A stretch of DNA of 64,000 bases from an uncultured Gammaproteobacteria bacterium (GTDB lineage: Bacteria; Pseudomonadota; Gammaproteobacteria; JAUZRS01). Positions 19,611 through 43,706 of this stretch are shown in pieces. Within the stretch, counting starts at the first letter, position 1; every line of letters starts with the position of its first letter. Position numbers and translations under genes: made by a program. The stretch lies in contig CAZTQX010000001.1 in the NCBI GenBank assembly GCA_964615985.1, positions 18,978 through 82,977 on the forward strand, read 5' to 3'. Under the pieces are notes generated by a model. It ran no database searches and was not told the DNA's origin. It was given only the letters and a program-made list of their open reading frames with translations.

Positions 19611-19615
19611 GGCAG

Positions 19616-21517: not shown

Positions 21518-21549
21518 GTTGTTGGTGGAGCTGTCGCTCGAGAGCTGTC

Positions 21550-22011
21550 TTAGCAGAGATTGATGTCTGCTGTTGCGCAGGAACCGCCTTTCGTCCAAGT
21601 AATGGAAGAGCTGCCAGGAGCCGTATTGGGAGTCAGGCTATAAGTAGTAGCAGCCGTTTGGCCAAAATCACCGGCGGTAGTGGTGGCAGTGATAACCCCT
21701 GCGACAATGGTCAGAGCCGCTAAGGTATTGGTGGTATCCAATGCCATCGGCAGGTTGGCTGGTATGGCTGGAATAGAACCGAGGTTGCCAAGATAACCAG
21801 GTATACATGCGGTTAGTACGCCACCGTTTTCTTGAGCACAAAGTTCCACGCCAAGCTTGTAGGGAGCGATAAGAGAGGTGACGGATTTAAACGCTGCGCG
21901 GTTGGTAAAGTTTTGATACTGAGGAATGGCGATGGCGGCCAAAATTCCGATAATCGCGACCACAATCATCAGTTCGATCAGAGTAAAACCTTGCTGTTTT
22001 TTATTTTGCAT
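21550..22011 (-). CDS. type IVa pilin (second, paralogous pilin)
   Basis: Leader MQNKKQQ followed by [21 protein letters not shown]. Alternative GTG start at 22017. Has a C-terminal Cys pair. Confidence 0.9.
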
Positions 22012-22051
22012 TTTCACGGTGTAGCTCCTAGTTTTAAAGTTGTTTGTTGCG

Positions 22052-22474
22052 TTAACAGAGACCACGATCTCTGCAATTTCCTGAAACTGTCCATGTGACT
22101 GAACTGCCATTGAAAGCTGGGGTTAAGATGTAGTAGGTGTGATCGGTTTGGCCAAAGCTGTCATCAATCGTTGTTACTTCAATTACACCGGCTGTGGTGC
22201 TGAGTTCATTAATCTTGCTTTGATCTTCAATTTTGCCTGGAATTCTTGCCAAGGTGCCAGGGTAGTCGTTACTGCATTGATCAAAGTTTCCTGCATTGTC
22301 TTGAGCACACATCTCGACCGCCATTTTAAACGGAGCCACCAAGGAGATTATCTCCTGAAATTCCGCTCGGTTGGTGAAGTTTTGGTACTGAGGAATCGCA
22401 ATGGCCGCCAAGATGCCAATAATGGCAACGACAATCATTAGTTCGATTAGAGTAAATCCGTTGGATCTCTTCAT
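22052..22474 (-). CDS. pilA: type IVa major pilin PilA
   Basis: Canonical 6-residue leader MKRSNG then [35 protein letters not shown] 6 nt upstream. C-terminal disulfide loop Cys residues present. Confidence 0.92.
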
Positions 22475-22520
22475 AGTCTGTCCCTGTTGGGGCATGCAAC
22501 TCCTTGGGTAGAAGAGTAAT

Positions 22521-22538
22521 AAGCAGATTGCAGGCCAA
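22521..22538 (-). promoter_or_regulatory. candidate sigma54 (-24/-12) promoter for pilA
   Basis: The minus strand reads TTGGCCTGCAATCTGCTT, giving GG-N10-GC spacing (TGGCCT...CTGCT against consensus TGGCAC-N5-TTGCW). It lies ~45 nt upstream of the pilA start and next to the pilR gene, whose product is a sigma54 enhancer-binding protein. Confidence 0.5.
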
Positions 22539-22665
22539 AAATTAATTACATCGTAAGCGATTGATAATATTTATAATTTTTGTTTTACCCGCTTGCTTGA
22601 TTTTTAAGATAACAGCCTTTGTTACTTATGGACAGGTTTTGTCTTTTTATGACAAACGTGATTGT

Positions 22666-24027
22666 TCATTCTATCCCCATTTTTTTCAGACGATAACGCA
22701 GTTGGCGATAACTGATGCCCAACGCCTCAGCTGCCGCGCTTTTTTTCCAGCGACTTTTTTCCAGTGCCTCCACCAGTGTCTCGCGCTCTTGCTGATTCAT
22801 AATACGATCTAAGGTCTGATTATTCTCATCGTTAGCGGGGGTTTTTTGGGGCTGACGTGCTGTTGCACTGTCTTCGAGTTGCAGATCTGAGCTGTGGATC
22901 TGATTGCCATCTTGCAGAGCCAATGCCCGCTCCAGAATGTTTTCCAGCTCACGAACATTGCCAGGGAAAGCGTAGTGGCTCAGCTTCAGCAAGGCCGACT
23001 GGCTGAGTTGTAGATGGGCCTCGGGGTAGTGACAAGCGAGGCGTTGCAAAATGGCCTGACACAGCTCATCAAGGTCTTCGGGGCGTTCTCTGAGTGGCGG
23101 TATTTTCAGCTCAATGACATTGAGACGGTAGTAGAGATCTTGGCGAAAATGTCCCTGCTCGACCTCTTCGCTGAGATCCTTGTGGCTGGCACTCAAAATA
23201 CGCACATCAATCGGCTCTTCGTGAGTGGCTCCAACGGGACGAATCTGTTTTTCTTGAATGCTACGCAGCAGTTTGACCTGCATCGGCAGAGGCAGATCGG
23301 CAATCTCATCCAGAAACAGCGTGCCACCCTCAGCGGCTTGAAACAGCCCCTCTTTGTTGGCCACCGCACCACTGAAACTGCCTTTGAGATGCCCAAAAAA
23401 CTCACTCTCCATCAATTCGCTGGGAATGGCACCGCAGTTGATGGCGATAAACGGGTTTTGAGCGCGAGGGCTTTGTTGATGAATTTGACGAGCCGCCAGC
23501 TCTTTACCAGTGCCCGACTCGCCACAGATGTAGACCGGTGCTTGATTGCGCGCTAATTTTTTGATGGTGTGGCGCAGCAGCTGCATCGGTTGTGATTGGC
23601 CGATCAGTGGTCGTGATGCTGTCTGTTTGTTTGGTTTAATGCTGGTTTCTGTTTTGTCGTTCAGCCGCAAGGCGGTGTTGATCAGAGTGCGTAGAACCTT
23701 GAGGTCAACGGGTTTGGAGATAAAATCAAACGCGCCTTTTTTTAACGCTTCGACGGCGGACTCCACATTGCCGTGAGCGGTGATCACCGCCACCGGAATT
23801 TGTGGGTACTGTTGCTGGATCAATTCAACCAATTGCAGACCGTTGCCATCGGGCAGGCGCATGTCGGTCAAACAGAGGTCGAACGGCTGTTGGCTCAGAG
23901 CGGTGCGCGCTTGCTGGAGGTCGATGGCGCTGTGGGTCTCAATGCCCATGCGCCCAAGGGTGATCTCCAACAGTTCGCGAATGTCGGCTTCATCGTCAAC
24001 GATCAAGGCAGTAGCGGTTTGGCTCAT
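22666..24027 (-). CDS. pilR: sigma54-dependent response regulator PilR (REC, AAA+, Fis-type HTH)
   Basis: 453 aa with a receiver domain, GESGTGKE Walker A, a GAFTGA-like loop (FSGA) and a C-terminal HTH. Confidence 0.92.
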   Translation of the reverse strand: MSQTATALIVDDEADIRELLEITLGRMGIETHSAIDLQQARTALSQQPFDLCLTDMRLPDGNGLQLVELIQQQYPQIPVAVITAHGNVESAVEALKKGAFDFISKPVDLKVLRTLINTALRLNDKTETSIKPNKQTASRPLIGQSQPMQLLRHTIKKLARNQAPVYICGESGTGKELAARQIHQQSPRAQNPFIAINCGAIPSELMESEFFGHLKGSFSGAVANKEGLFQAAEGGTLFLDEIADLPLPMQVKLLRSIQEKQIRPVGATHEEPIDVRILSASHKDLSEEVEQGHFRQDLYYRLNVIELKIPPLRERPEDLDELCQAILQRLACHYPEAHLQLSQSALLKLSHYAFPGNVRELENILERALALQDGNQIHSSDLQLEDSATARQPQKTPANDENNQTLDRIMNQQERETLVEALEKSRWKKSAAAEALGISYRQLRYRLKKMGIE

Positions 24028-25622
24028 GGGGTTGGGGTATCCAAAGTGTGGTTAAAAATAATACGAAAACAGCTGCCGTGATCGCTGGGGAGGTAACGTA
24101 AAGAGGCATTGTTAAAACGGCACAGTTCGCGTGCCATAAAAAGCCCTAAGCCGGTGCCGGTGTTGCTGGAGGTGTAAAAAGGCTCGAACAGTTTGTCCAG
24201 ATGCTGCTGGGGAATGCCGCTGCCGTTGTCGCTTAAATCCAGATAGGGGTGGCCGGTGGAGGGGGTTTGGCCACAGTGGATGCTGATCTGAATGTTCTCT
24301 TTTTGGCCGTGTTTGATGCTGTTACAGCAGAGGTTCCATAAAATCTGATTCAGGTGCAAAAATTCCATGTAAATGGGTTGGGCTTCGTTGCCAAAGTGCA
24401 GTTGCAGATTTTCTGCTGGCCACTTTTGCTGTTGGCAAAAATCAGCAGAAAATTGCAACAGGCTCTGTTGCAGGTCGATGGCGTGGCCGCTGAATTTTTG
24501 CAGTCGTGAGATCTGCATGACATCTTCGATTAGACGATTGATGCGTTGACCGTGATCGAGAATGATCTCCAACAAACGCCCATCTTCAACGCTGATGTGG
24601 GGTGATTCCGCCAACAGTTGTGAGGCGTGGCTGATGGCACCCAGAGGATTACGAATTTCATGGGCGATGTTGGCCGTCAGGTGGCCAAGGGAAGCGAGTT
24701 TGAGCTGCTGCACTTGTTCTTGAATGGCGGAGGTGTCTTGCAGCGAGATCAACCAGCCTTGGTCTTCCAAAGGAGTGAAGTGCGGTTGCAGTTCCGCTTG
24801 GCTGTTGGGTTCTTTGATTGAGCAGGGCAGCTGTTTTTTAGCCTGATGCCATTGATTCAGTGAGTAGTGCAAACGAGGCGCTTGTTGTTTGAGTGATGAT
24901 TTGTGCTGGAGGTTGGAGAGTTTGAGCAGTTCGCGAGCGCTTCGGTTGGCGAGGCGAATTCGCTGGCGGCTGTCCACCACCAAAATGGCTGCCTCCATTT
25001 TTTCGATGATCAGTTCATTCAACTGCGCCATATTTTTCAGGTCAATGCGACTCTGGGTGGCTTGCGCTTCACTCTCGCGGCTGCGCCGTGCCAGCAGCAT
25101 GGCCAGTAGGGCGGTGGCAAATAGGGTTGCGCCGAGAATGCCCGCTTGTGGGTAGTGGGTACTGCTCTGGCCGAGGCTGAGGTGGCTGTAGAGCTGTTCG
25201 GCCAAAATGGCCAAGCTGGCCAGTGCGGCAAACAGCAGTGCCAGACGTTCGGACATCAACACCCCAAAACCAGCGATGCTGATGATCAGCAGCATTCCCA
25301 AACCGCTGTTGATGCCACCGCTGCTGTGCATCAGCAGTAAAATAAAGCCAATGTCGATGCAGGAGCGGGGGATCAATTGCCTCTCAAAAGCCGGTTGTTG
25401 CAGACGTGCCAAGAGAATAAAAGCCAAACTGCTGAGCAAATAGAGAGTGATGATCAGCATAAACAACAGAGGTTGAGTGGAACCTAAAAAGGGCTTTCCC
25501 AGCTCGGAGAGGTAGGTGGCGATGAGGGTGATGCTGAGCAGCAGACGGTAGCCATCCAGCAGCAGCAGCAGCCGCCAGTTGGAGAGTTGGGTTTTTTGGG
25601 TTGGCGGAGGAGCGTTCAGCAT
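24024..25622 (-). CDS. pilS: sensor histidine kinase PilS
   Basis: 532 aa with six N-terminal TM helices, the H-box HEIRNPL and an HATPase domain. Overlaps pilR by 4 nt. Confidence 0.9.
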   Translation of the reverse strand: MLNAPPPTQKTQLSNWRLLLLLDGYRLLLSITLIATYLSELGKPFLGSTQPLLFMLIITLYLLSSLAFILLARLQQPAFERQLIPRSCIDIGFILLLMHSSGGINSGLGMLLIISIAGFGVLMSERLALLFAALASLAILAEQLYSHLSLGQSSTHYPQAGILGATLFATALLAMLLARRSRESEAQATQSRIDLKNMAQLNELIIEKMEAAILVVDSRQRIRLANRSARELLKLSNLQHKSSLKQQAPRLHYSLNQWHQAKKQLPCSIKEPNSQAELQPHFTPLEDQGWLISLQDTSAIQEQVQQLKLASLGHLTANIAHEIRNPLGAISHASQLLAESPHISVEDGRLLEIILDHGQRINRLIEDVMQISRLQKFSGHAIDLQQSLLQFSADFCQQQKWPAENLQLHFGNEAQPIYMEFLHLNQILWNLCCNSIKHGQKENIQISIHCGQTPSTGHPYLDLSDNGSGIPQQHLDKLFEPFYTSSNTGTGLGLFMARELCRFNNASLRYLPSDHGSCFRIIFNHTLDTPTP

Positions 25623-28408: not shown

Positions 28409-29065
28409 CTATGGTTTTCGATACATCAACCAATAAACCAACCGACAACCAAAATAGACCGCAAACCCCGCCAGCACCACATCACTGAAAAAATGCCCCC
28501 CCTGCGCCATCCGCACCCAGCCGATGTAAGCCCCCATGCTCAAACCAAAGGCAAACCAAGCCTTGCGCCGCCAGCCCACAAACAGAAACGCCGGAGCCAT
28601 CAGCACAAACGCCGCCGAAGCGTGGCCGCTGACAAAAGAGCAGTTGTAGGGGCATTGATCGGTGATTTGCCACGCGCGGGTGAACTGCATTTTGCCGTTG
28701 AACTGTGTCACTTCAAAGGGACGCGCTCTCGCCCAATTCTCTTTGAACAGCGCGTTGACGATCAACCCCGGTCCGACGATAAGGCAGAAAAACAGAAACA
28801 GACTGGGTTTGCGCCAGTTATGCCAGTTGCGCAGAAAACTGAGGGCAAACGCAAGCAGCAACAGCAGCACAATGCCACGGCCAATTAGAGGAACCCATTC
28901 ATAAGGCCGCTCAACAATAGCCTGACCTTCCAGTGGAAATCTTCCCAAGACAGGATCATAAAACCAGCCGCTGCTGATCAGATCGATCTCAGGCAACAGC
29001 ACAAACAGCGCACTACAGATCAGTAGCGCCGTCAGTGGCCACTCTCGTTTGAAAAAAGTGAGCAA
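28409..29065 (-). CDS. PAP2-family membrane phosphatase
   Basis: 218 aa with 5-6 TM segments and the PAP2 motif CSFVSGHASAAF. Confidence 0.8.
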   Translation of the reverse strand: MLTFFKREWPLTALLICSALFVLLPEIDLISSGWFYDPVLGRFPLEGQAIVERPYEWVPLIGRGIVLLLLLAFALSFLRNWHNWRKPSLFLFFCLIVGPGLIVNALFKENWARARPFEVTQFNGKMQFTRAWQITDQCPYNCSFVSGHASAAFVLMAPAFLFVGWRRKAWFAFGLSMGAYIGWVRMAQGGHFFSDVVLAGFAVYFGCRLVYWLMYRKP

Positions 29066-29066
29066 A

Positions 29067-29918
29067 CTACTTGCGCATCACAGCGGCTTGCAAGGTGTTT
29101 TCCAACAACATGGCGCGGGTCATCGGCCCGACTCCACCGGGAACGGGGGTGATGTAAGCGGCACGTTCAGCGGCGATGTCGTACTCCACATCACCGACCA
29201 GGCGACCGTCGGCGGTGCGGTTGATGCCCACGTCGATCACCGTTGCGCCTTCCTTGATCCATTCACCTTTCACCAACCCCGGTTTACCGGCAGCGGCGAT
29301 GACGATGTCCGCTTGTTTGACGTGCTTGCGGGTGTCGTGGCTGAAACGGTGGCAGACGATGACGGTGGAACCGGCGATCAGCAGCTCCATCGCCATCGGA
29401 CGGCCAACGATGTTGGAGGCACCGACGATCACTGCATCACGGCCTTTGTACACTTCGCCAACACTGTCGAGCAGTTTGATAATGCCCCACGGAGTGCAGG
29501 GGCGCAGTTGCGGCATTCGCAGCGCCAGCAGGCCGATGTTGTGAGGGTGAAAACCATCGACATCTTTGTCGGGGTTGATTTGTTCGATGACACGATTGCC
29601 GTCGATGTGATCGGGCAGCGGCAGTTGTACCAAAATGCCATCGACGTTGTCGTCGTTGTTGAGCTGCCCGATCAGATCCAACAGTTCCCGTTGGCTGGTG
29701 CTTTGGGGCAGATCGTGAGAGAAGGAGTTGAAGCCCACCTCATCGCAGTCGCGGCGTTTGTGTTTGACGTAGACCTCAGAGGCCGGATCACTGCCGACCA
29801 ACACCACCGCCAGCCCTGGTGCTCTCATGCCAGCGGCCAGTCTATGGCTGACCTGTTCTTTAACGCCGTGGCGAACCTCTTGAGCAATCTGTTTGCCGTC
29901 GATGATCTGTGCAGTCAT
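29067..29918 (-). CDS. folD: bifunctional methylenetetrahydrofolate dehydrogenase / methenyl-THF cyclohydrolase
   Basis: [16 protein letters not shown] is the canonical FolD N-terminus. The six-frame ORF runs further to 29957. Confidence 0.93.
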
Positions 29919-30040
29919 TTCGTTAACCCCATTTTCAGTGGGGCGGAATTCTCTCATGTTGGCTTTGATGCTGACAAGCGTAGTGGCCTGTATTTTGCCG
30001 CTTCTCTTTCACACTCATCCAATTTAGGCGGGAAATCAGC

Positions 30041-31957
30041 ATGGCGTTAAAAAATATGGCTCGACATCAGCAGAGCGGTGGCGGTGAAAGTGGTGGTACG
30101 GATCGGTGGGTGAAATGCAACGCTGAAGATCAGCGTCGCCATGCGCGGACGATGGCCAAACAGCAGCAGGCGGCGGAGCGGATTGCCGCCGCCTCGACGC
30201 AGTTGGCCAGCGGCGTGACACAGGCGGCCAGCGCCCGTGATCAGCTTTCTGTAGCGGTGAATGAAATTTCAGCGGGTGCGGAACAGGCCAGCGGCGCTTG
30301 TGAGCAGAGCCTGTTTTCGATCACTAAAATCACCACGCAAATCAAGCAACAATCTGACTTAGCGGAAACCTCTTCGAGCAAAGCGGTGGCACTGCAAGTC
30401 TTGGTGGATCGTACCTCTGAGGCGATCAGTAACTTGGTGGATAACGTCAAAGTTGCTGCTGATCGTCAAGCGAGTTCGGTCAAAGTGATGGCGGAGGTGG
30501 AGCAGCAGGCGGCCAATATCAATGAATCGGTCAAACAGGTGATGCGGATTGCCGATCAAACCAACCTGCTGGCACTGAATGCCGCCATCGAAGCCGGGCG
30601 CGCTGGCAAACACGGCAAAGGTTTTGCGGTGGTGGCGGATACGGTGCGTACCTTGGCCGAGACCGCTGAAAAAAACGCCCTTGGCATCGCCAAACAGATT
30701 GAGGTGATTCAAGAGTTGGCGCGCAGCGTCGGGGATTCTGTCACCAAAGCGAGTAAAACCGCCTTGGATGAGGTGGAAAAAGGCCAAGTGATTACCCAGC
30801 AGTTGCAGAGTATCAAGGACGATGTTAACGAGGTTTATCAAGGTTCTCAACGGTTGGAGAGCGGTGCTGAAGATATTAACCGTTCGATCTTAGTGGTACA
30901 AAAAGGCGCGGATGTGATTGCCACCGCTGCCCAAGATCAAGCCAGTGCCGCCGAAGAGGTGGTGGCTTCACTGGATCAACAGGAGCAAGCACTGCGTGAA
31001 TCGGAGCAAGCGTCACAAGGGTTAGAGGTACTCTCAGATGAGTTGAAAAACAGTACCGACATCGCCAAAAGCGCCGAGGAGGTGGCGGCCAGCGCCGAAG
31101 AACTCTCTTCGTCCATCGAAGAAATCAATCGTTCAGCGACTCAAATTAGTTCCGCCATTGAGCAGGTCAGTCGCAGTGCCGAGCAGAGTGCCACCGCCAT
31201 TGAGCAAGCGGTCTCTGGGATTGCCGAAGTTGAAAAAGGCGTGGATCTGGCCACCGAAATCAGTGGCTCTGCATTGCAGCGTTGTAAAAACATTCGTGAG
31301 TTATTGAGTGTTAATAAAACCAGCGTTGATGAAATGATCACAGGCATTGGCGATGCGATGGAGTCAGGTCGTGCCAATCTGAAAAACATCGAAGAGGTGG
31401 AGCAGTTGGCGCGTTTGATTGACAAAGTCACCGATGCCATTGCCACCGTCTCGATTAAAACCGGCATGTTGGCGGTCAATGGAGCGGTGGAAGCGGCGCG
31501 AGCCGGTGAATACGGCAAAGGCTTTGCGGTGGTGTCGTCGGATATCCAAAGTTTGGCTGACGATGCGGCAGAAAATGTCGATCAGATTAAAGACCAAGTG
31601 AAAGCCATTCAGGATCAGGCTTCCAAGGTGCGGATTGATTTGACCGAGGTGGCCAACAGTGCCTTGCAAGAGGTTGAACGCACCAAACAGACCACCACCG
31701 ATCTGCTGGCCATCGAAGAGGATATGAGTGTGATTCAGGATGGCAGTGAGCAACTTGGTCAGGTTGCGACTGAAATATCGGCGGCCAGCAACGAGATCAA
31801 ACGCGGCATGGAGCAGATCGCTGCTGCTGCCGAGCAAGCCAGCAGCAATGCCGAAGAAGCATCCATCGCAGCACGACAACAGTCTCAAGGGGCTGAGGAG
31901 TTGGCGGTGGCCACCGAGGAGATCGCCTCCATTGCGGATGAATTGCAGAGTGCGTAA
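30041..31957 (+). CDS. cytoplasmic methyl-accepting chemotaxis protein with two tandem signalling (MA) domains (DosM-like)
   Basis: 638 aa with no TM segment. Two separate receptor-tip motifs are present, [38 protein letters not shown] and [33 protein letters not shown]. Confidence 0.85.
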
Positions 31958-31987
31958 CGGTCATCCAACAACATCAAGGAGAGTGGT

Positions 31988-33529
31988 ATGACGACGGCAT
32001 TAGCAATTGACAACGATCTGCAACAGCAGCCCGACGAGGATGAAGAGCGTGCAGAGGAGCAGAGTCAATACGTCACCTTTCAAGTGGAGGATGAGGTGTT
32101 TGGTTTCCCGATGGAGTCGGTGCTGGAGATCATCCGTCTGCCCACCACCGTCGAGGTGCCGCTGACCCCCAAAGCACTGCTGGGGCTGGCCAATTTGCGC
32201 GGCAGCGTCTTACCGATTTTGGATCTGCGCCAAGTGCTGCACCTGAACAAAACAACCTACAACGATGCCAGCCGCGTGATCGTCACCGATGTCGGCTCGC
32301 CGGTGGGGCTGGTGGTGGACAAGGTCGCACGGGTGATGCAGGTGGAGCCAGAGTGCATCGACCGCAATGAACAGGTGCAGAACAACATCGGCGCGGAGCT
32401 GCTGGAGGGCGTGATCAAAGGTGGCAGCGGCGAGGCGCTGATTCAACTGCTGAACGTGGAGCAGTTGATCAAAGAGGAGTTCAGCGTGGTGCTGGCGGTG
32501 GCGCAGTCGGAGAGTGCCGAGCGTGAGGTGGGGCTGCTGATGCAGCACGAGGTGGAAGACGACACCGATCAACTGGTCAGTTTTACCCTAGAGGATCAAG
32601 AGTACGCCTTCAACTTATTGGAGGTGGAAGAGATTGTGCGCTTGCCGGAGCAGATCTCCAGTGTGCCGCGCAGCGACGCGCATATTTTGGGCTTGATGGA
32701 CCTGCGTGGGCGATTGCTGCCGTTGGTGAGTCTGCGCTGTCTGCTGGAGTTTGAAGAGGCGCAGAGCATTGACGAAGAGAGCCGTATTTTGGTCGTGAGC
32801 GTGAAAAATGCGCAGGGCAAAAAAGAGTCGGTGGGGCTGGTGGTGGACGATGTGAAGGAGGTTTTGCGGGTGGAAAAAGCGCTGCAAAACACCATGCCGC
32901 CGTTGCTGAACCGCAACGAAGAGAGTGCCGAAATCAGCTCCATCTGTCGTCTGGAAGGGGGTCAACGCTTGGTCTCGGTATTGACTGCTGAATCGCTTTT
33001 CGCGTTGCCCAGCGTGCAGGCGGCGATTCAGACAAAAGAGAGCGAAGCGGAGGCAGAGAGTGAGGTGAACGAGATGAAAGAGGGTGATGACGAAACAGCG
33101 CAACTGGTGGTGTTTTTGTTGGGGCAGCAAGAGTACGGCGTGAGCATTGATGACATTCAGGAGATTACCCGAGTGCCAGAGACGTTGGATAAGGTGCCGA
33201 AAACAGCGGAGTCCATTGAGGGCATGGTCAATCTGCGCGGCACGGTGCTGCCGGTGTTGGACATGCGCAGCCGTTTTGATATGCAGAAGATGGCGCGCAA
33301 CGACCGGCAGCGGATCATTGTGTTTAATCTCAACGGTACGCGCACCGGTTTTATTGTCGATTCGGTGGCGGAGGTGCTGCGTTTACCACGGGATCAGATC
33401 CAAGTGGCACCGCAACTCTCGGACGATCAAGCACGGATTATGGGACGGGTGATCAACCTGAAAAAAGAGCAGCGCATGATTCAAGTGTTGGCGACCGATG
33501 AATTGTTAGCAGAAGAAGTTGATGCGTAG
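31988..33529 (+). CDS. scaffold protein with three tandem CheW domains
   Basis: 513 aa. The CheW-like block (...LGL.NLRG..LPI.DLR...) occurs three times, at roughly residues 30-170, 190-330 and 370-510. Confidence 0.85.
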   Translation: MTTALAIDNDLQQQPDEDEERAEEQSQYVTFQVEDEVFGFPMESVLEIIRLPTTVEVPLTPKALLGLANLRGSVLPILDLRQVLHLNKTTYNDASRVIVTDVGSPVGLVVDKVARVMQVEPECIDRNEQVQNNIGAELLEGVIKGGSGEALIQLLNVEQLIKEEFSVVLAVAQSESAEREVGLLMQHEVEDDTDQLVSFTLEDQEYAFNLLEVEEIVRLPEQISSVPRSDAHILGLMDLRGRLLPLVSLRCLLEFEEAQSIDEESRILVVSVKNAQGKKESVGLVVDDVKEVLRVEKALQNTMPPLLNRNEESAEISSICRLEGGQRLVSVLTAESLFALPSVQAAIQTKESEAEAESEVNEMKEGDDETAQLVVFLLGQQEYGVSIDDIQEITRVPETLDKVPKTAESIEGMVNLRGTVLPVLDMRSRFDMQKMARNDRQRIIVFNLNGTRTGFIVDSVAEVLRLPRDQIQVAPQLSDDQARIMGRVINLKKEQRMIQVLATDELLAEEVDA

Positions 33530-33591: not shown

Positions 33592-34668
33592 ATGCGGAAG
33601 GTTTTGGTTGTTGATGACTCAGCATTGATGCGAAAACAGCTGAGTGACATTTTGATGCAGGGCGGTTACGAGGTACAGACCGCTCGTAACGGTGAGGAGG
33701 GGCTGAACAAGATCGCCTCGTTTGATCCGATGGTGGTGACGCTGGATCTGAACATGCCGGTGATGGACGGCATGACCTGTTTGAGTTTGATTATGCAGAA
33801 ATTTCCACGACCGGTGGTGATGGTCTCCTCGCTGACCGAAAAGGGCGCGTTGGCGACCTTTGAGGCCTTGGAGTTGGGGGCGATGGATTATGTCGCCAAA
33901 CCTGGTGGCACGGTTTCGGTCAACATTCGTGAGGTGGCCGAAGATCTGTTGGCCAAGGTCAATGCCGCTGCCTCAGCGCGGATCAGACCCCGTCGAAAAA
34001 TCGCTGTCAAACCAAGGGCGGTGACAAAGAAAAAACCGGTCAACCTTCAGTGTTCGGAGGGGGTGGTGATCATCGGGGTCTCAACCGGTGGGCCACGCAC
34101 TTTGGAAGGGGTGATTGCCGAGCTACCGCAGACGTTCCCCTTGCCGATTGTGGTGGTACAGCACATGCCCGCCAGTTTTACCGGTCTGTTTGCCGAGCGC
34201 TTGAATAAGTTATCGGCAGTGACGGTAATGGAGCTGGATAAGCCGACTTTTTTGGAGGCGGGCACGGTGTTGGTCGCCAAGGGCAATGCCGATGTGAAAT
34301 TGATCCGCCGCAGCGGTCGTTTGATGGCCTGTCTGACTCCCGAGTCAGGGAAGTTTCTTTGGCATCCCAGCGTGGAGCGGTTGGCAAAATCGGTGCAGCA
34401 GGTCTGTGATCCTGAGCGAGTAATTGCGGTGCAGTTGACCGGCATGGGCAGCGACGGCGCACAGACGATGGCAGAGCTGCATCAACAGGGAGCACGCACC
34501 ATCGCCGAGTCGGAGCAGACGGCGGTGGTTTATGGGATGCCGCGTGAATTGGTGGAGCGGGGGGGCGCTGAGAAAATCCTGCCCTGTGACGAGATCGCTG
34601 CGCAGTTGGTGCGCTGGACAAACGAGATGGCCAAAATGACTCAAGCGCGTCAGTTGGCGCACGCTTAG
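33592..34668 (+). CDS. cheB: chemotaxis methylesterase CheB (REC plus methylesterase)
   Basis: MRKVLVVDDSALMRKQL receiver followed by a C-terminal CheB esterase domain (GVSTGGP, GMP). Confidence 0.92.
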   Translation: MRKVLVVDDSALMRKQLSDILMQGGYEVQTARNGEEGLNKIASFDPMVVTLDLNMPVMDGMTCLSLIMQKFPRPVVMVSSLTEKGALATFEALELGAMDYVAKPGGTVSVNIREVAEDLLAKVNAAASARIRPRRKIAVKPRAVTKKKPVNLQCSEGVVIIGVSTGGPRTLEGVIAELPQTFPLPIVVVQHMPASFTGLFAERLNKLSAVTVMELDKPTFLEAGTVLVAKGNADVKLIRRSGRLMACLTPESGKFLWHPSVERLAKSVQQVCDPERVIAVQLTGMGSDGAQTMAELHQQGARTIAESEQTAVVYGMPRELVERGGAEKILPCDEIAAQLVRWTNEMAKMTQARQLAHA

Positions 34669-34677
34669 GAGGATTTA

Positions 34678-35295
34678 ATGGGTTTTAAAAAAGCAGTTAT
34701 TGAAGATGAGTTGGATACCGTGCTGCTGGAGCGTGATTACGTCACCTTGTTGGCGGAGTTGCAGAGCGAGTTGGTGGCCGAGCGCCGCGATGCGGTGCGG
34801 GAATTGGCAGATTATCCGCAGTCGGTGGTGGCGCTGCTGAATGTTTTGGATGAGGAGCCAGATCATCTGGTGCGCGAGGCGTTGCTGATGAGCTTGCAGC
34901 AGATCGGCGGCGAGACGGTGGTCTCGGGTCTGATTAACTTGCTGCGTTCCGAGGATGCGGTGCTGAGAAACGGTGCCATCGAAGTGTTGCAGAGTATGCC
35001 CGAAGGGGTGGCGCTGCACATGTTGGAGCTGCTGAACGATCAAGATTCTGATGTGCGTATTTTTGCCATCGACATTTTGCAGCAGTTGGCGCATCCGCAA
35101 GCACCGGAGTGGTTGCTGTCGGTGCTCAAAGATGAGACTCACATCAATGTCGTGACCACCGCTGTGGATCGGCTGGCGGAGGTGGGGCGACCGGAGATGG
35201 TGCCGGAGTTGGAGGCGATCAAAGCGCGTTTTCCTGATGAACCTTATTTGGCGTTTGCGGTGGATCTTGCCAGCCGCCGCATTGAGAAGGTTTGA
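34678..35295 (+). CDS. HEAT/PBS-lyase-type repeat protein
   Basis: 205 aa of 4-5 HEAT-like repeats (VRxxAxxxL...) sitting between cheB and cheR. Confidence 0.75.
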   Translation: MGFKKAVIEDELDTVLLERDYVTLLAELQSELVAERRDAVRELADYPQSVVALLNVLDEEPDHLVREALLMSLQQIGGETVVSGLINLLRSEDAVLRNGAIEVLQSMPEGVALHMLELLNDQDSDVRIFAIDILQQLAHPQAPEWLLSVLKDETHINVVTTAVDRLAEVGRPEMVPELEAIKARFPDEPYLAFAVDLASRRIEKV

Positions 35296-36158
35296 TTATG
35301 TTGGCCTCTCCTGTGGCACCTTCGCAGAGCTGCATCACCGATGTGGAGTTTGAGCGTTTTCGAGATTTTTTCTATCGTAAAACCGGGATTAAATTTGAGG
35401 GCAGCAAACGTTATTTTGTCGATAAACGTCTGCTGGAGCGGATGCAGCAGACGGGGCACAGCAGTTTTCGCAGCTATTTTACCTTTATGCGTTTTCAAGC
35501 CACGCGGGATGAGCTGCAAGAGCTGATCAACAGCATGACGGTCAATGAGACCTATTTCTTTCGTGAGGAGTATCAATTCAAGTGCATGGCGGAGGAGCTG
35601 CTGAACGAGGTGGTGCGCAACAAAGCCAAGGGTGAGGGGATTCGCATCTGGTCGATCCCTTCTAGCAGTGGCGAAGAGCCGTACTCCATCGCTCTCTATC
35701 TGTTGGAGCATTGGCCTTTGCTGAATAAAATTGATGTGGAGATCTGTTCCTCGGACATCGACAGCAAGATGTTGCAGAACTGTCGCAAGGGTATCTACAG
35801 CCAGCGGTCGGTGAAGCAGTTGCCCAAGGCATTGCTAAAACGCTACTTCAAAGAGCTGCCAGGCGAGCGATTTCAGATTGACCGCGAATTGCGGGAGTCG
35901 ATTCAGTTCACGCAGGTGAACCTCAGTGATCGGGCGCAAGCGCGGCGTTACAGAAACTTTGATCTGATTTTTTGCCGTAACTTATTGATCTACTTCGATG
36001 AAGCCTCACGCCGTCAGGCGGCGGAGCTGTTTTACGATGCGCTGAACCCTGGGGGATATATTTTTCTGGGGCATTCGGAGTCCATGAGTCGGATCTCGTC
36101 GCTGTTTTCGGTGCGTAAATTTTCTAAAGCGCTGGCCTACCAGAAACCGCTTCGATAG
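35292..36158 (+). CDS. cheR: chemotaxis receptor methyltransferase CheR
   Basis: 288 aa SAM-dependent MTase with CheR N- and C-domains (IWSIPSSSGEEPYSIA, FCRNLLIYFD). Confidence 0.92.
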   Translation: MIMLASPVAPSQSCITDVEFERFRDFFYRKTGIKFEGSKRYFVDKRLLERMQQTGHSSFRSYFTFMRFQATRDELQELINSMTVNETYFFREEYQFKCMAEELLNEVVRNKAKGEGIRIWSIPSSSGEEPYSIALYLLEHWPLLNKIDVEICSSDIDSKMLQNCRKGIYSQRSVKQLPKALLKRYFKELPGERFQIDRELRESIQFTQVNLSDRAQARRYRNFDLIFCRNLLIYFDEASRRQAAELFYDALNPGGYIFLGHSESMSRISSLFSVRKFSKALAYQKPLR

Positions 36159-36166: not shown

Positions 36167-36541
36167 TTGAGTATGAAAAAAATTCTAATTGTGGACGATG
36201 CGTTAACAGTTCGTCTTTATCACCGTCAGTTGATGGAGGGTTTGGGCTTTGAAGTGGGTGAGGCAGAGAACGGCATCGAGGCGTTGGAAAAGGGTTTGAG
36301 CGAGCCGTTTGATCTCTTTTTGGTGGATGTGAACATGCCGAAAATGGACGGTTATCGACTGGTGGAAGAGATGCGCCAAGATCCGAGTTTGGCCGCTGTG
36401 CCGGTGATTATGATCAGCACCGAGGAGTCAGAGCAGGATCGCGAGAAAGCCTATCTGAGCGGGGCTAATTTTTATGTGGTGAAACCGGCGGATGTGTCGG
36501 AGTTGCAGACCTACGCTACGTTGCTGGCCGGAGGAGTCTAG
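36167..36541 (+). CDS. cheY: single-domain response regulator CheY
   Basis: 124 aa receiver with KKILIVDD, D57-equivalent LFLVDVNMP and K109-equivalent VVKP. Confidence 0.9.
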   Translation: MSMKKILIVDDALTVRLYHRQLMEGLGFEVGEAENGIEALEKGLSEPFDLFLVDVNMPKMDGYRLVEEMRQDPSLAAVPVIMISTEESEQDREKAYLSGANFYVVKPADVSELQTYATLLAGGV

Positions 36542-36543: not shown

Positions 36544-39171
36544 ATGGATCCTATATTGGCCTATTTTCTATCGGAATCACGAGAGAATCTGGAGAGTGCA
36601 GGCCGCTGTTTTTTGGAGCTGGAGCAGACTCCTGACGGCAGCGAGTTATTGGATGATCTGTTTCGTGCCATTCACACCATGAAAGGCTCTTCGGGGCTGT
36701 TTGATATTCCGCCGTTTACCAAAACGGTGCATGCCGCTGAGGATCTGTTGGATCAGGTGCGCAGCGGCGAGGTGATCTTGAGCGCGGAACACATCGACTT
36801 GCTGTTGGAGGTGATGGATCAGATCTCACTCTGGTTGGATGAGCTGGAGTCGCAGGGCTGTTTACCCAGCAATGCGCTGGATGCTGGCGAAGGCTTGAGT
36901 GCCGAGTTACGCGCCATCTACCGTTCAGAGTTAGAGCAAGAGTTGCCTGTGGCAGAGGTGACTCCGACTGCGGTTTCTCAAGAGGCCCTTTCAGAAGCGC
37001 CAACATGGTTGCAGCGGGTGGATGACGGCGAGCGTATGGTGCTGTTTGAGATGCTGCAAACACCTGATAAAGAGTTGACGGCGATTGAGTATCGACCCGC
37101 TGCGGGCTGTTTTTTCAGTGGCGATGATCCGTTACACGTCATGCGTAATCTGCCCGATCTCTGCTGGTTGGCGGTGACTTCTGAGAATGAGTGGCCTGTA
37201 GCAGAAGAGAGGGATCTTTATCAGTGTAATCTGCGTTTTTACGCTCTGAGCTGGGCGAGCAAAACGGAGTTGCAGCACTGTTTTCGTTATCAGATTGAGC
37301 GGGTGACGTTGACATCGTTACAGTCTTCGCAGTTGGTGTTTGCTGAGGGTGTTTGGGGTGACGAGGAGCCGTTTGAGCTGTTTTTACAGCAGGTTCCTGA
37401 ATGGGTGGTGGGGCAAGATTGGTCGCGGTTGGCGGTCTTGATTAAGCCGCTGCTGGAGCTGAGCGGCGCTGAGTTACAGCAGACCTCGGTGCTGCGTTGG
37501 CTGCGCCTGTTGTTGCAGCACGACTGCCAAGATGCAGAATTGTTCCGCTCTCTGTTGGAGGTGATGACCGAGGGCATCTTGCTCTGGCCAGAGCAAGATG
37601 AGGCGGTTGCTGTGGCGGTTTCGACAGAGCAGCGCCAAGCGGCACAGCAGGCGTTGCAGACACAGCGGCAGATTTTGAGTATGCCTTGTGGCGAGGGTGC
37701 GATGCAGGGACGCATCGCCTCGGTCTCGATGGTGATGAGCAACATGATGCAGTTGCTGGGAATGTCGGTGGAGCCGTTGTTGGCGGCACGAGATGCCGCA
37801 AGGCAGAGCGATTGTTTAGATCCGCTGTTGCAGTTTTTGCACGGGTTGGATTTTGTTGCGGTGGCCGAGCCAGTTGCAGAATCTAAGCCACGGCAGTCCG
37901 CTTTGGCACCCTTGTCGCTGTTGCCGCCTGCGGTTGAGCGGCGTAAGTCAGAGCGACGGCTGGACAGTCGTCGTCAAGAGCTTGAAATCCCAGCGATAAA
38001 GACCCTGAAGGTGGATCAACAGCGCATCGACAGTCTGATGGATCTGGTGGGTGAGCTGGTGGTGGCGAAAAATGCGCTGCCTTTTTTGGCTAAACGCGCC
38101 GAAGAGCATTTTGGTGTGCGCCAACTGGCCAAGGAGATCAAAAGTCAATACACAGTGATCAATCGCCTTTCGGAAGAGCTGCAAGGGGCGATGATGCAGA
38201 TCCGTATGGTGCCGATCTCCACCGTTTTTCAGCGTTTTCCGCGTTTGGTGCGGGATCTGTCGCGCAAGCTGGATAAACAGGTGGAGCTGAAATTGGAGGG
38301 TGAGGAGACCGAAGCGGATAAAAACGTGGTGGAAAACTTGGCCGATCCGCTGATTCACTTGGTGAGAAACAGCTTGGATCACGGTTTGGAGAGTGTTGAA
38401 GAGCGCCTCAAGGCGGGTAAACCGGCCAACGGCACCATTACTCTACGCGCCATTGGTCAGGATGATCAGGTGGTGATTGAGATTTGCGATGATGGTCGTG
38501 GCATCGATCCTGGAAAAATCAAACACAAAGCCTATCAAAAGGGTCTGTTGGATGAGCAGCGGCTTGACAGCATCAGCGATCATGAGGCATTGCAGTTTAT
38601 TTTTGCCGCTGGTCTTACCACTGCTGAGACGGTTTCTGATCTGTCGGGGCGCGGGGTGGGGATGGATGTGGTGCGCTCGGTGATTCAGGCGGCGGGTGGC
38701 ACGGTGGAGGTGAGCAGCGAATTGGGGCAAGGCAGCACGGTGCGTTTAAGCCTGCCGCTGTCGATGGCGGTCAGTCGCGTGATGATGATTGAGGTGGCGG
38801 AGCAGAGTTACGGCATTTCCATGGAAAACATCATTGAGACGGTACGCATTCCTCGTGCGGCGGTGCAGCGCATCAAGCAGAGCGAGGCGTTGGTGCTGCG
38901 TGAACGCTTGATTCCGCTGTTTTCCTTGCGGATGTTGCTGGGGCTAGCGCCGATGCAGCAGCAGCCAGAAGAGATTGCGGTGTTGGTGATGATGTTGGGC
39001 AAGGAGGAGGTGGCGTTGGTGATTGATGAGTTTCACGAAGGGATTGATATTATTCAAAAACCGTTGGAGGGGGTAATGGCCAATTATCCGTTCTATTCGG
39101 GCGCGACCTTGCTGGGGGATGGGCGGGTGTTGTTGGTGTTGAATACTCCGGAGTTGTTGGCATGTCGATAA
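36544..39171 (+). CDS. cheA: chemotaxis histidine kinase CheA (Hpt, dimerisation, HATPase, CheW-like)
   Basis: 875 aa with Hpt AIHTMKGSSGLFDI, the G-boxes DDGRGID and GRGVGMDVV, and a C-terminal CheW-like domain. A long ~450 aa insert lies between Hpt and the dimerisation domain. Confidence 0.92.
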   Translation: MDPILAYFLSESRENLESAGRCFLELEQTPDGSELLDDLFRAIHTMKGSSGLFDIPPFTKTVHAAEDLLDQVRSGEVILSAEHIDLLLEVMDQISLWLDELESQGCLPSNALDAGEGLSAELRAIYRSELEQELPVAEVTPTAVSQEALSEAPTWLQRVDDGERMVLFEMLQTPDKELTAIEYRPAAGCFFSGDDPLHVMRNLPDLCWLAVTSENEWPVAEERDLYQCNLRFYALSWASKTELQHCFRYQIERVTLTSLQSSQLVFAEGVWGDEEPFELFLQQVPEWVVGQDWSRLAVLIKPLLELSGAELQQTSVLRWLRLLLQHDCQDAELFRSLLEVMTEGILLWPEQDEAVAVAVSTEQRQAAQQALQTQRQILSMPCGEGAMQGRIASVSMVMSNMMQLLGMSVEPLLAARDAARQSDCLDPLLQFLHGLDFVAVAEPVAESKPRQSALAPLSLLPPAVERRKSERRLDSRRQELEIPAIKTLKVDQQRIDSLMDLVGELVVAKNALPFLAKRAEEHFGVRQLAKEIKSQYTVINRLSEELQGAMMQIRMVPISTVFQRFPRLVRDLSRKLDKQVELKLEGEETEADKNVVENLADPLIHLVRNSLDHGLESVEERLKAGKPANGTITLRAIGQDDQVVIEICDDGRGIDPGKIKHKAYQKGLLDEQRLDSISDHEALQFIFAAGLTTAETVSDLSGRGVGMDVVRSVIQAAGGTVEVSSELGQGSTVRLSLPLSMAVSRVMMIEVAEQSYGISMENIIETVRIPRAAVQRIKQSEALVLRERLIPLFSLRMLLGLAPMQQQPEEIAVLVMMLGKEEVALVIDEFHEGIDIIQKPLEGVMANYPFYSGATLLGDGRVLLVLNTPELLACR

Positions 39172-39401
39172 GTTACAAAAAAACCGTGGCCAAGTTGAGT
39201 GATTTTTGCACCATCGAAGAGGCAGAGCCGTTGTGGGAGTGGCTGTTGGCCAACCCCAACGGCAAGCTGAATCTCAAAACCTTGCAGCATCCGCACAGCG
39301 CGGTGTTGCAGGTGATGATGGCCAATCGGATTTCGGTCTCGGTCTGGCCTGACGATGCTCAGATGACTTTTTGGTTGCAGGCGGCGCTGCGGGATGGCTG
39401 A
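39162..39401 (+). CDS. small conserved-position hypothetical protein (79 aa)
   Basis: Overlaps the cheA end by 10 nt and the ParA-like start by 8 nt, which suggests translational coupling. I recognise no motif; a STAS-like fold is speculative. Confidence 0.45.
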   Translation: MSISYKKTVAKLSDFCTIEEAEPLWEWLLANPNGKLNLKTLQHPHSAVLQVMMANRISVSVWPDDAQMTFWLQAALRDG

Positions 39402-40173
39402 GTGGCAACAGCCGTTGACGCTGGCGATCAGCAATCGTAAAGGCGGCTCGGGTAAAACCACCACGGCGGTGAACTTGGCGGCTGAGTGGGGGCGGCAGGG
39501 GCATCGTGTGCTGTTGATTGATCTGGACAGCCAAGGTCATGCCGCCATCGGTGTGGGCTGTCGAGCGGCGCGGCGTTCGGAGGAGCATGTGCATCAACTG
39601 CTGCATCGACCGGAGTTGGCTTTGATGGACTTGGTGCAGTTAACGCCGATTCGTAACGTCTGCTTGGCTCCGGCCAACACTGATTTTTGTGCGCAAGAGC
39701 TGCCGGTGTTGATCTTAAAGCAGGCGTTGCAGAGCGAGGCGGTGGCGGTGGCCTTTGATCGGGTGGTGTTGGATACCCCGCCGACGATGGATTCGTTGTT
39801 GATCAGTGCGTTGGTGGCGGCGCATTCGGTGTTGGTGCCGTTTGTGCCGCACCATTTATCTGCGGTGGGCGTGCGCCAACTGGCGAAGCTGTTTTATAAG
39901 GTGGCGACGCTGCACAATTCTGACTTGAGGTTGTTGGGTCTGCTGCCGATCATGATGGATCGGAAGTTGAAATTGCAGCAGCGGGTGATGGCGGATTTGG
40001 GGCAGCAGTTCGGACGTGAACGAATCTTGCGAGGCATTCGCAGCAACATCAAATTGGCTGAGGCTTTCGAAGCAGGTGAGCCGATTTTTTCCTACGCTCC
40101 GCGCAGTTCAGGGGCGATGGATTATCAGCTAATGGCTGAGGAGTTGGAGCTTTTTTTTAATCGTAAAGAGTGA
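39394..40173 (+). CDS. ParA/MinD-family P-loop ATPase (chemosensory-array partitioning candidate, ParC/PpfA-like)
   Basis: Deviant Walker A ISNRKGGSGKTTTAVNLAA, 259 aa, embedded in the che operon. Confidence 0.85.
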   Translation: MAEWQQPLTLAISNRKGGSGKTTTAVNLAAEWGRQGHRVLLIDLDSQGHAAIGVGCRAARRSEEHVHQLLHRPELALMDLVQLTPIRNVCLAPANTDFCAQELPVLILKQALQSEAVAVAFDRVVLDTPPTMDSLLISALVAAHSVLVPFVPHHLSAVGVRQLAKLFYKVATLHNSDLRLLGLLPIMMDRKLKLQQRVMADLGQQFGRERILRGIRSNIKLAEAFEAGEPIFSYAPRSSGAMDYQLMAEELELFFNRKE

Positions 40174-40176: not shown

Positions 40177-40551
40177 GTGATGATGAAAAAAATCATGTTG
40201 GTGGATGATTCTATGACCCTGTTGATGAGTATGCAGGGCGTTTTGAAACGTGCGGGTTTTGAGGTGGCCACCGCCAGCAGCGGTCATCAGGCGCTGCGAG
40301 ATATGGGGGCGTTTGCTCCGGATATGGTGATCACCGATCTGAATATGCCGGGGATGGATGGCATTGAGTTTATTAGGGAGACGAAAAAATTGGCGGCCAT
40401 GCGTTTTAAACCGATGTTGATGTTGACCACCGAGTCGCAGCAGGGCAAACGCGATGAGGCCAAGCGGGCGGGGGCGATGGGCTGGTTGGTGAAACCGGTG
40501 GCTCCAGAGCAGTTGACTCAGGTGGTGCGGCAGGTGCTGCCAGGAGCGTGA
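40177..40551 (+). CDS. cheY: single-domain response regulator (CheY-like)
   Basis: 124 aa receiver with MKKIMLVDDS, VITDLNMPGMDG and LVKP. Confidence 0.88.
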   Translation: MMMKKIMLVDDSMTLLMSMQGVLKRAGFEVATASSGHQALRDMGAFAPDMVITDLNMPGMDGIEFIRETKKLAAMRFKPMLMLTTESQQGKRDEAKRAGAMGWLVKPVAPEQLTQVVRQVLPGA

Positions 40552-40635: not shown

Positions 40636-42345
40636 ATGAGTTCGATTACAGCCTCTCCGATACGCCATCTCATCGTTGTTATTACGGTTGGTTTTGTGGC
40701 GGTTTTTCTGTTGGTGTGGCTGTTATCTGCACCCTTATTTTTATTGTTGCTGGATTTTGATCTCCTCTATCAGCAATCATTGTTGGCGGCGGTCAGCGCC
40801 AGCATGGTCTTCTGGGTTCTTTTTTCATTTGAGTTGAAAACATCGCGGCACAGACAGGTGATCAATGCGAACCTGCATCGGCGGCAACTTTCGACTCAAA
40901 CGAAAAGCGTCTGTCAAAAAAGTGAAATGGGTTCTGCTTTGTTGTTAAGTCATCTGAACCGCTGTCAACAGCAGGTGGCGGACTTTCACAGCGAGATGCA
41001 GCAGCCGTTGTTGGAGCTGTTGGGTGAGTTAAACAGCCGCCAACAGCAGCAACGGCTGTTGGCGTTGCAAGGCGATTGTGAGCAGCGTATCGAGACACTG
41101 CGCGAGACGTTGGAGCAGGATTCTGAGGCGATGTTGCTGGCGCTGGCTGATGATGAGGTGGTTTTGTCAACGGAGCTGTTGCTGCAACAGAGTCGCACGG
41201 TGGAGAAAATCAGTGGGTTTGCGTTGCAGGGTGCGCTGGCCAGTCAGAATGCTTTGCAGTTGTGGGTTCGTTTGACCCTACCGGATGCGGAGTTGGCGCG
41301 GGAAAGTGACGTGAGTCAGCAGGTGGAAGCGATTCGAGAACAGGGTTTGGAGTACGCTCTGGATGTGGTGGAGCAGATGTTGTTGACGTACAAACAGGTG
41401 GAGGAGTTTCATCATATTCTGGATTCGCAATTGGATGGCGTTGAGCAGTTGACCGAAGAGGCATCGATGGATCTGATGCAGAACATTCAGCAGATTGAGT
41501 CGGCGGCTGAGGATTCAATGCATCAGGTGCGTAAAGCGATTACAGACTCTGCCAGCTTGAGTCAGTGCGGTCAGAGCCGTGTCAGTTCCATTCAGAACAG
41601 CATTGATGATCTGCGCGCTTATGTGGATGAGCGTAAAAGTGACAATATCAATCACTCACAGCAGATTGAGCAGGTCTTACAGGAGGTTGGTAAGTTGAGC
41701 GGTTTGGCTGAGATGGTGAAAAACATCGCCTTTCAGACCAATATTTTGGCGCTTAATGCATCAATTGAAGCGGCACGAGCTGGGCAAGCGGGCAAAGGGT
41801 TTTCGGTGGTGGCCGGTGAGGTACGCCGTTTATCGGAGCAGTCAGAAGAGGCCGCCAATCACATCGGCGAGGGGATTGAAAAAGCGATTGGTTCGGCGCA
41901 TCAACAGATGGATTATCTGTTGGATGAGGAACGTATGGCCAATGAAAATCGGCGTTTAACGGCTTTTGTGACAGATTTGAGTCAGATGGCGGGTATGTAC
42001 GCGGAGTTAGAGAACTTGAATCAGACACTCTTTGATCAGACTTCAAGCAATGTGGAGAAAATTACCAGCTTGACCGTGGAGACTTTCGCGCGGATTCAAT
42101 TTCAGGATATCACGCGCCAACGGTTGGAACAGATCAAGACAGCCCATGAGATGATTGATCGCCATATTATGGCGTTACCGGCGGCGATTTTGGAAAAGAG
42201 TGCGTTTTACGCTCTGGACGGTTTGGAGCTGGATGCGCTTTATGAGGGCTACTACATGGAAGATCAGCGCCAAATTCATCAGCAAGCCACCGGCATGGCT
42301 TGCCCAACCCCGCAGCCAGAGCTGCCTAAGATTGAGCTGTTTTAA
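40636..42345 (+). CDS. transmembrane methyl-accepting chemotaxis protein
   Basis: 569 aa with two N-terminal TM helices and the tip motif [38 protein letters not shown]. Confidence 0.88.
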
Positions 42346-42998: not shown

Positions 42999-43697
42999 CT
43001 AGCCACCGGCCTGCTGTTTGGCTTTCAGGCGTTCCAAAATGGAGTTGCCGGAAGCCGCGCCGCTGACGATGCCCGCTTCTTTGAGTTTGGCGCTCAGATC
43101 GGCACCGCTGCCTTCGTTTTGCAGCTCCATCGCCGCCTGCATCTGATCTTGGCGTTTCTGCTGTTTGGCTTTGATCCGTTCCAGCGAGTCAGTGGCCGAA
43201 CGCATGGAGGAGTTGCTGCCAGAGAATTTGGCTGCTGCTGCTGAATTGGCTTTGTTGACCGCTTCGGTGGTTTTCACCACGGATACTTCCCGCTCCATCG
43301 CTCGCACGTTGCGCTCGGTCTCATTGATGGTCTTTTTCAACTGACTGACGTTGTTGTTGTAGCCGTCGAGTAGTTTTTGTTGGGCATCCAACTCTTCGCT
43401 GATCTCAGCGATTTTGTTCGCTACTTCCAGAGCCAGAGCATCGTTGCCGGATTCCATCGCTTTGATGGCGTAACCTTCGTGTTCGGTGACGGAAGCAGAC
43501 AGTTGTTTGACCTTGCGATCCACGCCCATTTTTTCCGCCATCACACCGGTGAGACTCTGTTTGGCTTGATTCAGGTGGGTGCGTGCATCGCGCATCTCTT
43601 GATCGAGAATTCGCAGGGCTTGGGTGTCCACAATCGCTTCACCCACTTCGGTGGCTCCGCCACGGACGGCAGTCAATAATTTGTTCCAAATGCTCAT
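42999..43697 (-). CDS. PspA/IM30 (Vipp1/ESCRT-III-like) family protein, YjfJ-like
   Basis: 232 aa coiled-coil protein whose N-terminus MSIWNKLLTAVRG...QALRILDQEMRDA is typical of PspA/YjfJ. Confidence 0.8.
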   Translation of the reverse strand: MSIWNKLLTAVRGGATEVGEAIVDTQALRILDQEMRDARTHLNQAKQSLTGVMAEKMGVDRKVKQLSASVTEHEGYAIKAMESGNDALALEVANKIAEISEELDAQQKLLDGYNNNVSQLKKTINETERNVRAMEREVSVVKTTEAVNKANSAAAAKFSGSNSSMRSATDSLERIKAKQQKRQDQMQAAMELQNEGSGADLSAKLKEAGIVSGAASGNSILERLKAKQQAGG

Positions 43698-43706
43698 AAT
43701 GAACTC

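Follow-up and report, generated by a model that had tools for sequence, protein, structure and literature searches.

Why does one chemoreceptor adaptor protein carry three CheW domains in a single chain? The question is posed by a gene, cheW3, in a 64,000-nucleotide stretch of DNA from an uncultured gammaproteobacterium (contig CAZTQX010000001.1, positions 18,978 to 82,977; the whole stretch is called the window here). We consider it probable, at roughly 0.8, that CheW3 is the adaptor of an F9 chemosensory system, in which it would serve as a multivalent, stoichiometry-fixing scaffold in the baseplates of a membrane-free, two-layer array. The evidence comes from the gene and its operon, from the conservation of each domain among homologues, and from the lengths of the tethers and of the neighboring receptor.

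The triple-CheW gene and its operon

An earlier note on this DNA had described a polypeptide of three CheW modules, and the description holds: Pfam CheW (PF01584) matches the protein in three stretches, with a whole-protein E value of 4.7e-90 and a score of 298.8 bits against a cutoff of 23.5 bits. The open reading frame starts with ATG, and both of its ends fall exactly where the note had placed them. Domain envelopes were set with an HMM built from the repeats (Table 1). Compared in pairs, the repeats are 31 to 34% identical (BLASTP E values of 6e-20 to 1e-24), far above chance, and D3 is the nearest of the three to Escherichia coli CheW, with a mean identity of 34%. The note had also suggested an AlphaFold prediction; in the AF2 model of the CheW3 chain alone, D1, D2, and D3 all fold as CheW (domain pLDDT mostly >90, chain mean 85), and Foldseek matches the domains to solved CheWs at TM scores of 0.81 to 0.84. 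Sequence and fold searches of the PDB with CheW3 returned single-domain CheW and CheA-P5 and no multi-CheW structure.

We considered a misassembly or a frameshift fusion of three cheW genes and ruled it out. Exactly three domains were found in 200/200 full-length homologues examined, and an identical protein is encoded on eight independent metagenome contigs (JGI 3300009408 and 3300023500; SRR5189950 and SRR5189953); cheW3 is therefore a real gene.

Table 1. Coordinates of cheW3, its parts, and the other genes of the operon
Feature	Coordinates	Strand	Description	Basis
DosM-type soluble receptor	30041..31957	+	638 aa, two MCP signalling hairpins	Pfam, hydropathy
Shine-Dalgarno AAGGAG	31976..31981	+	6 nt 5' of cheW3 ATG	sequence
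cheW3	31988..33529	+	513 aa, three CheW domains (CheW3 / CheW.III architecture)	ORF, Pfam, 100% identical public protein
CheW domain D1	32060..32485	+	aa 25-166; interface-2 positions variable	repeat HMM, conservation
Linker 1	32486..32563	+	aa 167-192; net charge -6, 0 Pro	sequence, AF2
CheW domain D2	32564..33013	+	aa 193-342; ~6-aa insertion present	repeat HMM, conservation
Linker 2	33014..33094	+	aa 343-369; net charge -8, 0 Pro, partly helical in model	sequence, AF2
CheW domain D3	33095..33523	+	aa 370-512; most conserved of the three domains	repeat HMM, conservation
cheB	33592..34668	+	receiver + methylesterase	Pfam
HEAT-repeat protein	34678..35295	+	205 aa, between cheB and cheR	Pfam
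cheR	35292..36158	+		
cheY (first)	36167..36541	+		
cheA	36544..39171	+	875 aa: Hpt, long variable insert, dimerisation, ATPase, P5/CheW-like	
ParA-like ATPase	39394..40173	+	ParA/MinD-type, between cheA and second cheY	
cheY (second)	40177..40551	+		
Membrane-anchored MCP	40636..42345	+	single signalling domain, last gene of cluster	

The genes of the operon stand in the order DosM-CheW3-CheB-HEAT-CheR-CheY-CheA-ParA-CheY-MCP. A 333-aa open reading frame (29049-30050, + strand) was examined as a further member and rejected; it has no Pfam or NCBIfam match and overlaps folD (29067-29957, opposite strand) almost completely, as a shadow ORF rather than a gene, so the operon begins at the double-domain receptor. 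A scan of the operon for promoters and terminators gave no signal, with promoters at or below the shuffled expectation and terminators within about 1.5 standard deviations of it. In CheA, ∼390 residues without a Pfam family lie between Hpt (residues 4 to 95) and the dimerisation domain (residues 486 to 553); we regard this insert as variable because tblastn against other F9 loci splits there. A long insert at the same place has been reported for CheA-F9 (10.64898/2026.05.11.724241), and the window CheA shares it. For the HEAT-repeat gene, VC1400 in Vibrio cholerae, a literature search gave no described function.

The last gene of the operon encodes an MCP that is membrane-anchored, since its N-terminal segments are strongly hydrophobic (KD19 maximum of 3.08 near residue 12). 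A membrane-anchored receptor is thus encoded inside the operon of a cytoplasmic array; a review of V. cholerae poses the same puzzle for the TM-containing MCP VC1394 (PMC7534058).

We assign the locus to F9 because its architecture and gene set show each F9 feature tested. The three concatenated CheW domains are found by Pfam and by HMM envelopes; a DosM with tandem signalling domains and no TM or sensor domain lies in the same cluster; and CheA, CheY, CheB, CheR, DosM, and CheW3 are encoded together. A CheW-family feature, the conserved receptor groove with its invariant Arg, is present in each of the three domains. Judged by these sequence features, the locus is a canonical F9 operon, and the uncultured bacterium carries a complete gene set for an F9 cytoplasmic array.

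The best-known relative is VC1402 of V. cholerae, a "concatenated triple CheW" that builds baseplates with the CheA VC1397 (PMC7534058). In V. cholerae, whose F9 array is cytoplasmic, both baseplates have been reported to contain the triple CheW together with CheA (PMC7534058, PMC9321776), and DosM (VC1403), which has two signalling domains, spans both layers (PMC7534058). DosM and CheW3 have been called the "signature components" of F9; full F9 clusters were counted in 64 of 2,781 species, and partial sets with DosM and CheW3 without CheA exist (PMC9321776). As in the window, the three-domain chain of V. cholerae is coded beside DosM, and its cluster I, or F9, includes CheA (VC1397) and a TM-containing MCP (VC1394). 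The organisms differ; we see no difference in function or structure. CheW3 of the window is probably the orthologue of VC1402, as judged from architecture, synteny, and what has been published.

These parallels bear on several claims of the earlier note. Its proposal of a two-layer cytoplasmic array agrees both with the position of cheW3 directly downstream of a TM-less, double-hairpin MCP and with the baseplates built by VC1402 (PMC7534058, PMC9321776). Its view that multi-domain CheWs are unusual is borne out by a preprint from the Bourret laboratory, in which they are ∼1 to 3% as abundant as single-domain CheW (bioRxiv 10.1101/2022.05.07.491037). The same preprint names the three-domain architecture CheW.III and cites the V. 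cholerae study as the only experimental work on it. The novelty that the note implied does not stand: according to the preprint, CheW.III was linked to F9 by Wuichet and Zhulin as early as 2010 (10.1101/2022.05.07.491037). The architecture, name, class, and baseplate location of CheW3 are already published, and the window locus is a textbook member of F9.

Covalent multiplication of CheW-like nodes is likewise seen in CheW.II, which has two domains, and in CheA with two CheW domains. CheW.II belongs to F8/ACF and two-CheW CheA mostly to F5; unlike CheW3, neither has a DosM partner. Another cytoplasmic system, that of Rhodobacter sphaeroides, is a double-layered array with TlpT, CheW4, CheA3/CheA4, and the ParA-like PpfA, which, like the ATPase of the window, is encoded with che genes; it uses a single-domain CheW and ordinary soluble receptors and is not known to contain DosM or CheW3. 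We take the ParA-like ATPase of the window to resemble PpfA, the partitioning ATPase of that cluster. PMC7534058 mentions cryo-ET of the R. sphaeroides array. Among 52 loci related to that of the window, only 18 have a ParA-like gene, and its position varies.

Conservation of the three domains

A database search with CheW3 returned 3,516 proteins at an E value of ≤1e-10, and the best 120 of these were all 470 to 573 aa long. The closest named relative among the matches listed comes from a gammaproteobacterial metagenome-assembled genome and is 74% identical. In a scan of GTDB species representatives, at least 557 species carried CheW3 matches; 80 loci were kept for synteny and come from Alpha-, Beta-, and Gammaproteobacteria, Desulfobacterota, Myxococcota, Actinomycetota (Actinoplanes and Dactylosporangium), and WOR-3. 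DosM lies immediately 5' of cheW3 in 69/69 loci, and CheB lies 3' in 71/74. HEAT, CheR, CheY, and CheA are present in the same order in all 58 loci with enough flanking DNA. VC1402 of V. cholerae was neither one of the best 120 matches listed nor part of the 80 loci kept.

Every CheW3 domain (600/600) had as its nearest relative its positional counterpart in the protein of another species, with identities of 52 to 59% at the same position and 29 to 34% across positions. Thus, each position has an identity of its own, and the triplication predates the spread of F9; as dated by these comparisons, it is ancient.

To compare binding surfaces, E. coli CheW contact residues (PMC13098124) were mapped onto the CheW3 family by an alignment at 28 to 34% identity, the E. 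coli reference sequence having been verified. The MCP-contact set is enriched in positions at which D1, D2, and D3 share a residue that is ≥80% conserved in each class (8/15 versus 11/114; odds ratio of 10.7, P = 1.7e-4). Among these shared positions are the equivalents of V36, E38, I39, R62, V105, and V108. The V36, E38, I39, V105, and V108 equivalents are ≥92% conserved in D1, D2, and D3, and R71, R240, and R417, the equivalents of E. coli R62, are invariant in 119 to 200 homologues. By this mapping, the receptor-binding residues are kept in all three domains.

A different picture emerged for interface 1, the surface that in E. coli docks CheA-P5 or the next CheW in the ring (PMC13098124). 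The residue sets are small, 15 positions for interface 1 and 6 for interface 2, and entropy was compared, domain by domain, with that of positions outside every interface set. By homology mapping of the 15 positions, interface 1 is constrained in D1 (entropy of 0.73 versus 1.79 for the background, P = 3e-4) and in D3 (0.79 versus 1.39, P = 0.04), whereas in D2 it is no more conserved than the background (1.67 versus 1.54, P = 0.73), and the equivalents of N60 and G63 vary. Ring interfaces were not significantly richer in class-specific positions (P = 0.11). Comparisons of interface 2 across the three domains, underpowered at 6 positions, were nonsignificant as well.

Relative to the single-domain CheW of E. 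coli (PDB 2HO9, 6S1K, and 8C5V), CheW3 thus has the same fold (TM scores of 0.81 to 0.83 at 31 to 33% identity) and, in every domain, equivalents of the receptor-groove residues V36, E38, I39, R62, V105, and V108. The E. coli protein has one domain and works in a membrane array; CheW3 has three copies per chain, each with a distinct conserved identity, and belongs to a cytoplasmic two-layer array. In D2, constraint on the CheA-P5 docking surface has been lost, the N60 and G63 equivalents included.

Tethers, receptor rods, and placement in a baseplate

The linkers of the window CheW3 are 26 to 27 aa long, and the family median is 30 aa for both. Across homologues, linker length has an interquartile range of 28 to 31 aa, with 24 to 32% Asp plus Glu and ∼1% Pro. 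The earlier note had called the linkers acidic or Gln-rich. They are acidic, with net charges of -6 and -8, but not rich in Gln: each has two, and the Gln-rich segment is confined to the N-terminal tail (residues 1 to 24; net charge of -8), which contains QQQ. AF2 models the first stretch of each linker as a continuation of the C-terminal helix of CheW; pLDDT then falls below 50 at residues 178 to 188, and confidence also collapses at residues 361 to 367. Fully extended, a linker would reach at most ∼10 nm.

We found no confident packing between domains in AF2, either in the full-length protein (119-sequence alignment; pTM of 0.46) or in D2-D3 alone (20 sequences only; pTM of 0.49, against ∼0.45, which we estimate for a pair of independent domains); both runs are monomer models, which cannot report lattice contacts. 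A fixed geometry, which the note had raised as a possibility for the covalent trimer, is therefore not supported by these models. Since no fixed packing is predicted, CheW3 looks in these models like three independent beads on short acidic tethers, and the covalent link would fix stoichiometry and maximum separation rather than a rigid shape.

Three beads without predicted contacts are also what would be expected had three cheW paralogues been joined by chance, the link itself having no function, and each domain is a complete Class-1-type CheW (10.1101/2022.05.07.491037). Such a neutral fusion is very improbable, however. Fusion, domain order, and linker length are kept in 200/200 homologues, and among these 200, drawn from a family that spans Proteobacteria, Desulfobacterota, Myxococcota, Actinomycetota, and WOR-3, no split version was found.

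The receptor encoded next to cheW3 gives the scale against which the tethers can be read. The window DosM has two MCPsignal stretches and no further Pfam domain, lacks a TM segment (maximum KD19 of 1.08), and carries canonical tips near residues 168 to 210 and 468 to 510. Counted by alignment across 69 orthologues from several phyla, the tips are exactly 300 aa apart in 68 and 299 aa apart in one. An α-helix rises ∼0.15 nm per residue, and 300 residues of DosM helix would place the tips tens of nanometers apart. Tips 1 and 2 differ at 14 positions, each ≥80% conserved within its own tip; presumably, several of these positions align with Tsr contact residues, including I377 and L380. The strict spacing and the differing tips together suggest that DosM is a ruler with two nonequivalent ends, and the tip differences fit the idea that separate CheW3 domains, or P5, read separate tips.

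The one point in favor of CheW3 as a strut whose domains bridge the two opposing baseplates is that a scaffold of several domains occurs together with an array of two layers. Geometry effectively refutes this arrangement: the linkers extend to ∼10 nm at most, the DosM tips are 300 helix residues apart in 68/69 loci, and the spanning role has been given to DosM (PMC7534058). With a tether reach so far below the separation of the tips, CheW3 must act within one baseplate.

We therefore return to CheW3 as a multivalent scaffold within a baseplate. The proposal builds on observations made here (how the domains are arranged, which operon the gene belongs to, what is conserved, and how long the tethers are), and it takes from V. 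cholerae, by analogy, the location of CheW3 in baseplates and the formation of arrays independently of CheA; in that organism, DosM is essential for array formation and CheA is not (PMC7534058). DosM dimers would form rods that end in a signalling tip on both sides, and each tip would insert into one of two baseplates composed of CheA and CheW3. Every CheW3 domain may be a node of the lattice, with the tip of one receptor dimer bound in the canonical CheW groove, and D1 and D3 would also keep a surface for CheA-P5 or a neighboring CheW in rings, where D2 seems unconstrained. Tethers of ∼26 to 30 aa, ∼15 to 20 of them apparently flexible, would hold the three nodes within a few nanometers; with tethers so short, the three domains must occupy neighboring lattice positions of the same baseplate. 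With three linked sites, a chain would bind with greater avidity and keep the three specialised CheW types at 1:1:1; the lattice would thereby be able to nucleate and stay together where there is no membrane, and even if CheA is missing.

How the three nodes are laid out is less certain. They may all lie in one hexameric baseplate ring and so set its composition, either at three consecutive positions, two chains then making a CheW-only ring, or alternating with three CheA-P5 domains. The arithmetic suits hexameric rings (3 or 2 × 3), linker length is tightly constrained, and E. coli rings run head to tail, the interface-1 side of one domain meeting the interface-2 side of the next (PMC13098124). 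A D1-D2-D3 half ring is compatible with the conservation pattern: the tethered D1/D2 junction would be relaxed, because D1 interface 2 and D2 interface 1 are both unconstrained, and the outer ends are conserved. We nevertheless think the ring layout possible but rather unlikely. AF2 gives neither D2-D3 nor overall packing, an alternating ring needs both interfaces in every domain although interface 1 of D2 is unconstrained, and ∼15 to 20 flexible residues look short for i,i+2 spacing, which we estimate at roughly 7 nm.

Alternatively, one CheW3 might wrap one receptor trimer of dimers, one domain per dimer, with each domain in a different ring. Three domains equal the three dimers of a trimer, and the receptor grooves are conserved in all three. 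DosM occupies only every other trimer in V. cholerae (PMC7534058), and this, together with tips that differ at conserved contact positions, fits partner-specialised domains. Against it, a CheA-P5 on a receptor site, as in E. coli, would bring four CheW-like domains to three dimers, and the strong conservation of interface 1 in D1 and D3 suggests that ring contacts matter too; we consider the arrangement unlikely. Also doubtful, and to the same degree, is its corollary that CheW3 templates the receptor trimer and so makes CheA dispensable for assembly, with which the nonessential CheA of V. cholerae F9 arrays and the DosM-CheW3 sets that have no CheA (PMC9321776) would agree.

The general scaffold reading can be extended to a division of labor, which we offer tentatively and which, taken whole, is improbable. 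D1 and D3 would be CheA-P5 or ring nodes and D2 a receptor-only node, specialised before the spread of F9 and reading the two DosM tips and the partner receptor differently; the single chain would then be a local wiring rule for a membrane-free, CheA-independent lattice whose thickness is set by the 300-residue ruler. The literature searched gave no description of either a domain division of labor in CheW3 or a tip asymmetry in DosM.

What the comparison adds to F9 is a set of modest refinements of a known system rather than a new system: position-specific domain identities, three grooves, a relaxed interface 1 in D2, tethers of 28 to 31 aa, a 300-aa DosM spacing, and unequal tips. These CheW3 and DosM results offer concrete starting points for work on V. 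cholerae by cryo-ET, cross-linking, and mutagenesis.

The rest of the window

Outside the operon, the window is ordinary chromosomal DNA, with secA, pilSR/pilBC, hemF, folD, pspA, and rnf. On the minus strand upstream of the operon (18390-25622) is a block of type IV pilus genes that comprises pilC, pilB, a pilin with an N-methylation motif, pilR, and pilS. Downstream, pspA and a DUF2170 gene are found at 42999-44201, also on the minus strand. Two large paralogues, of 1,072 and 1,093 aa, are encoded convergently at 56470-59688 (+) and 59713-62994 (-); in both, a STAND/NPHP3-type NTPase at the N terminus is joined to a BTAD transcriptional-activator domain at the C terminus.
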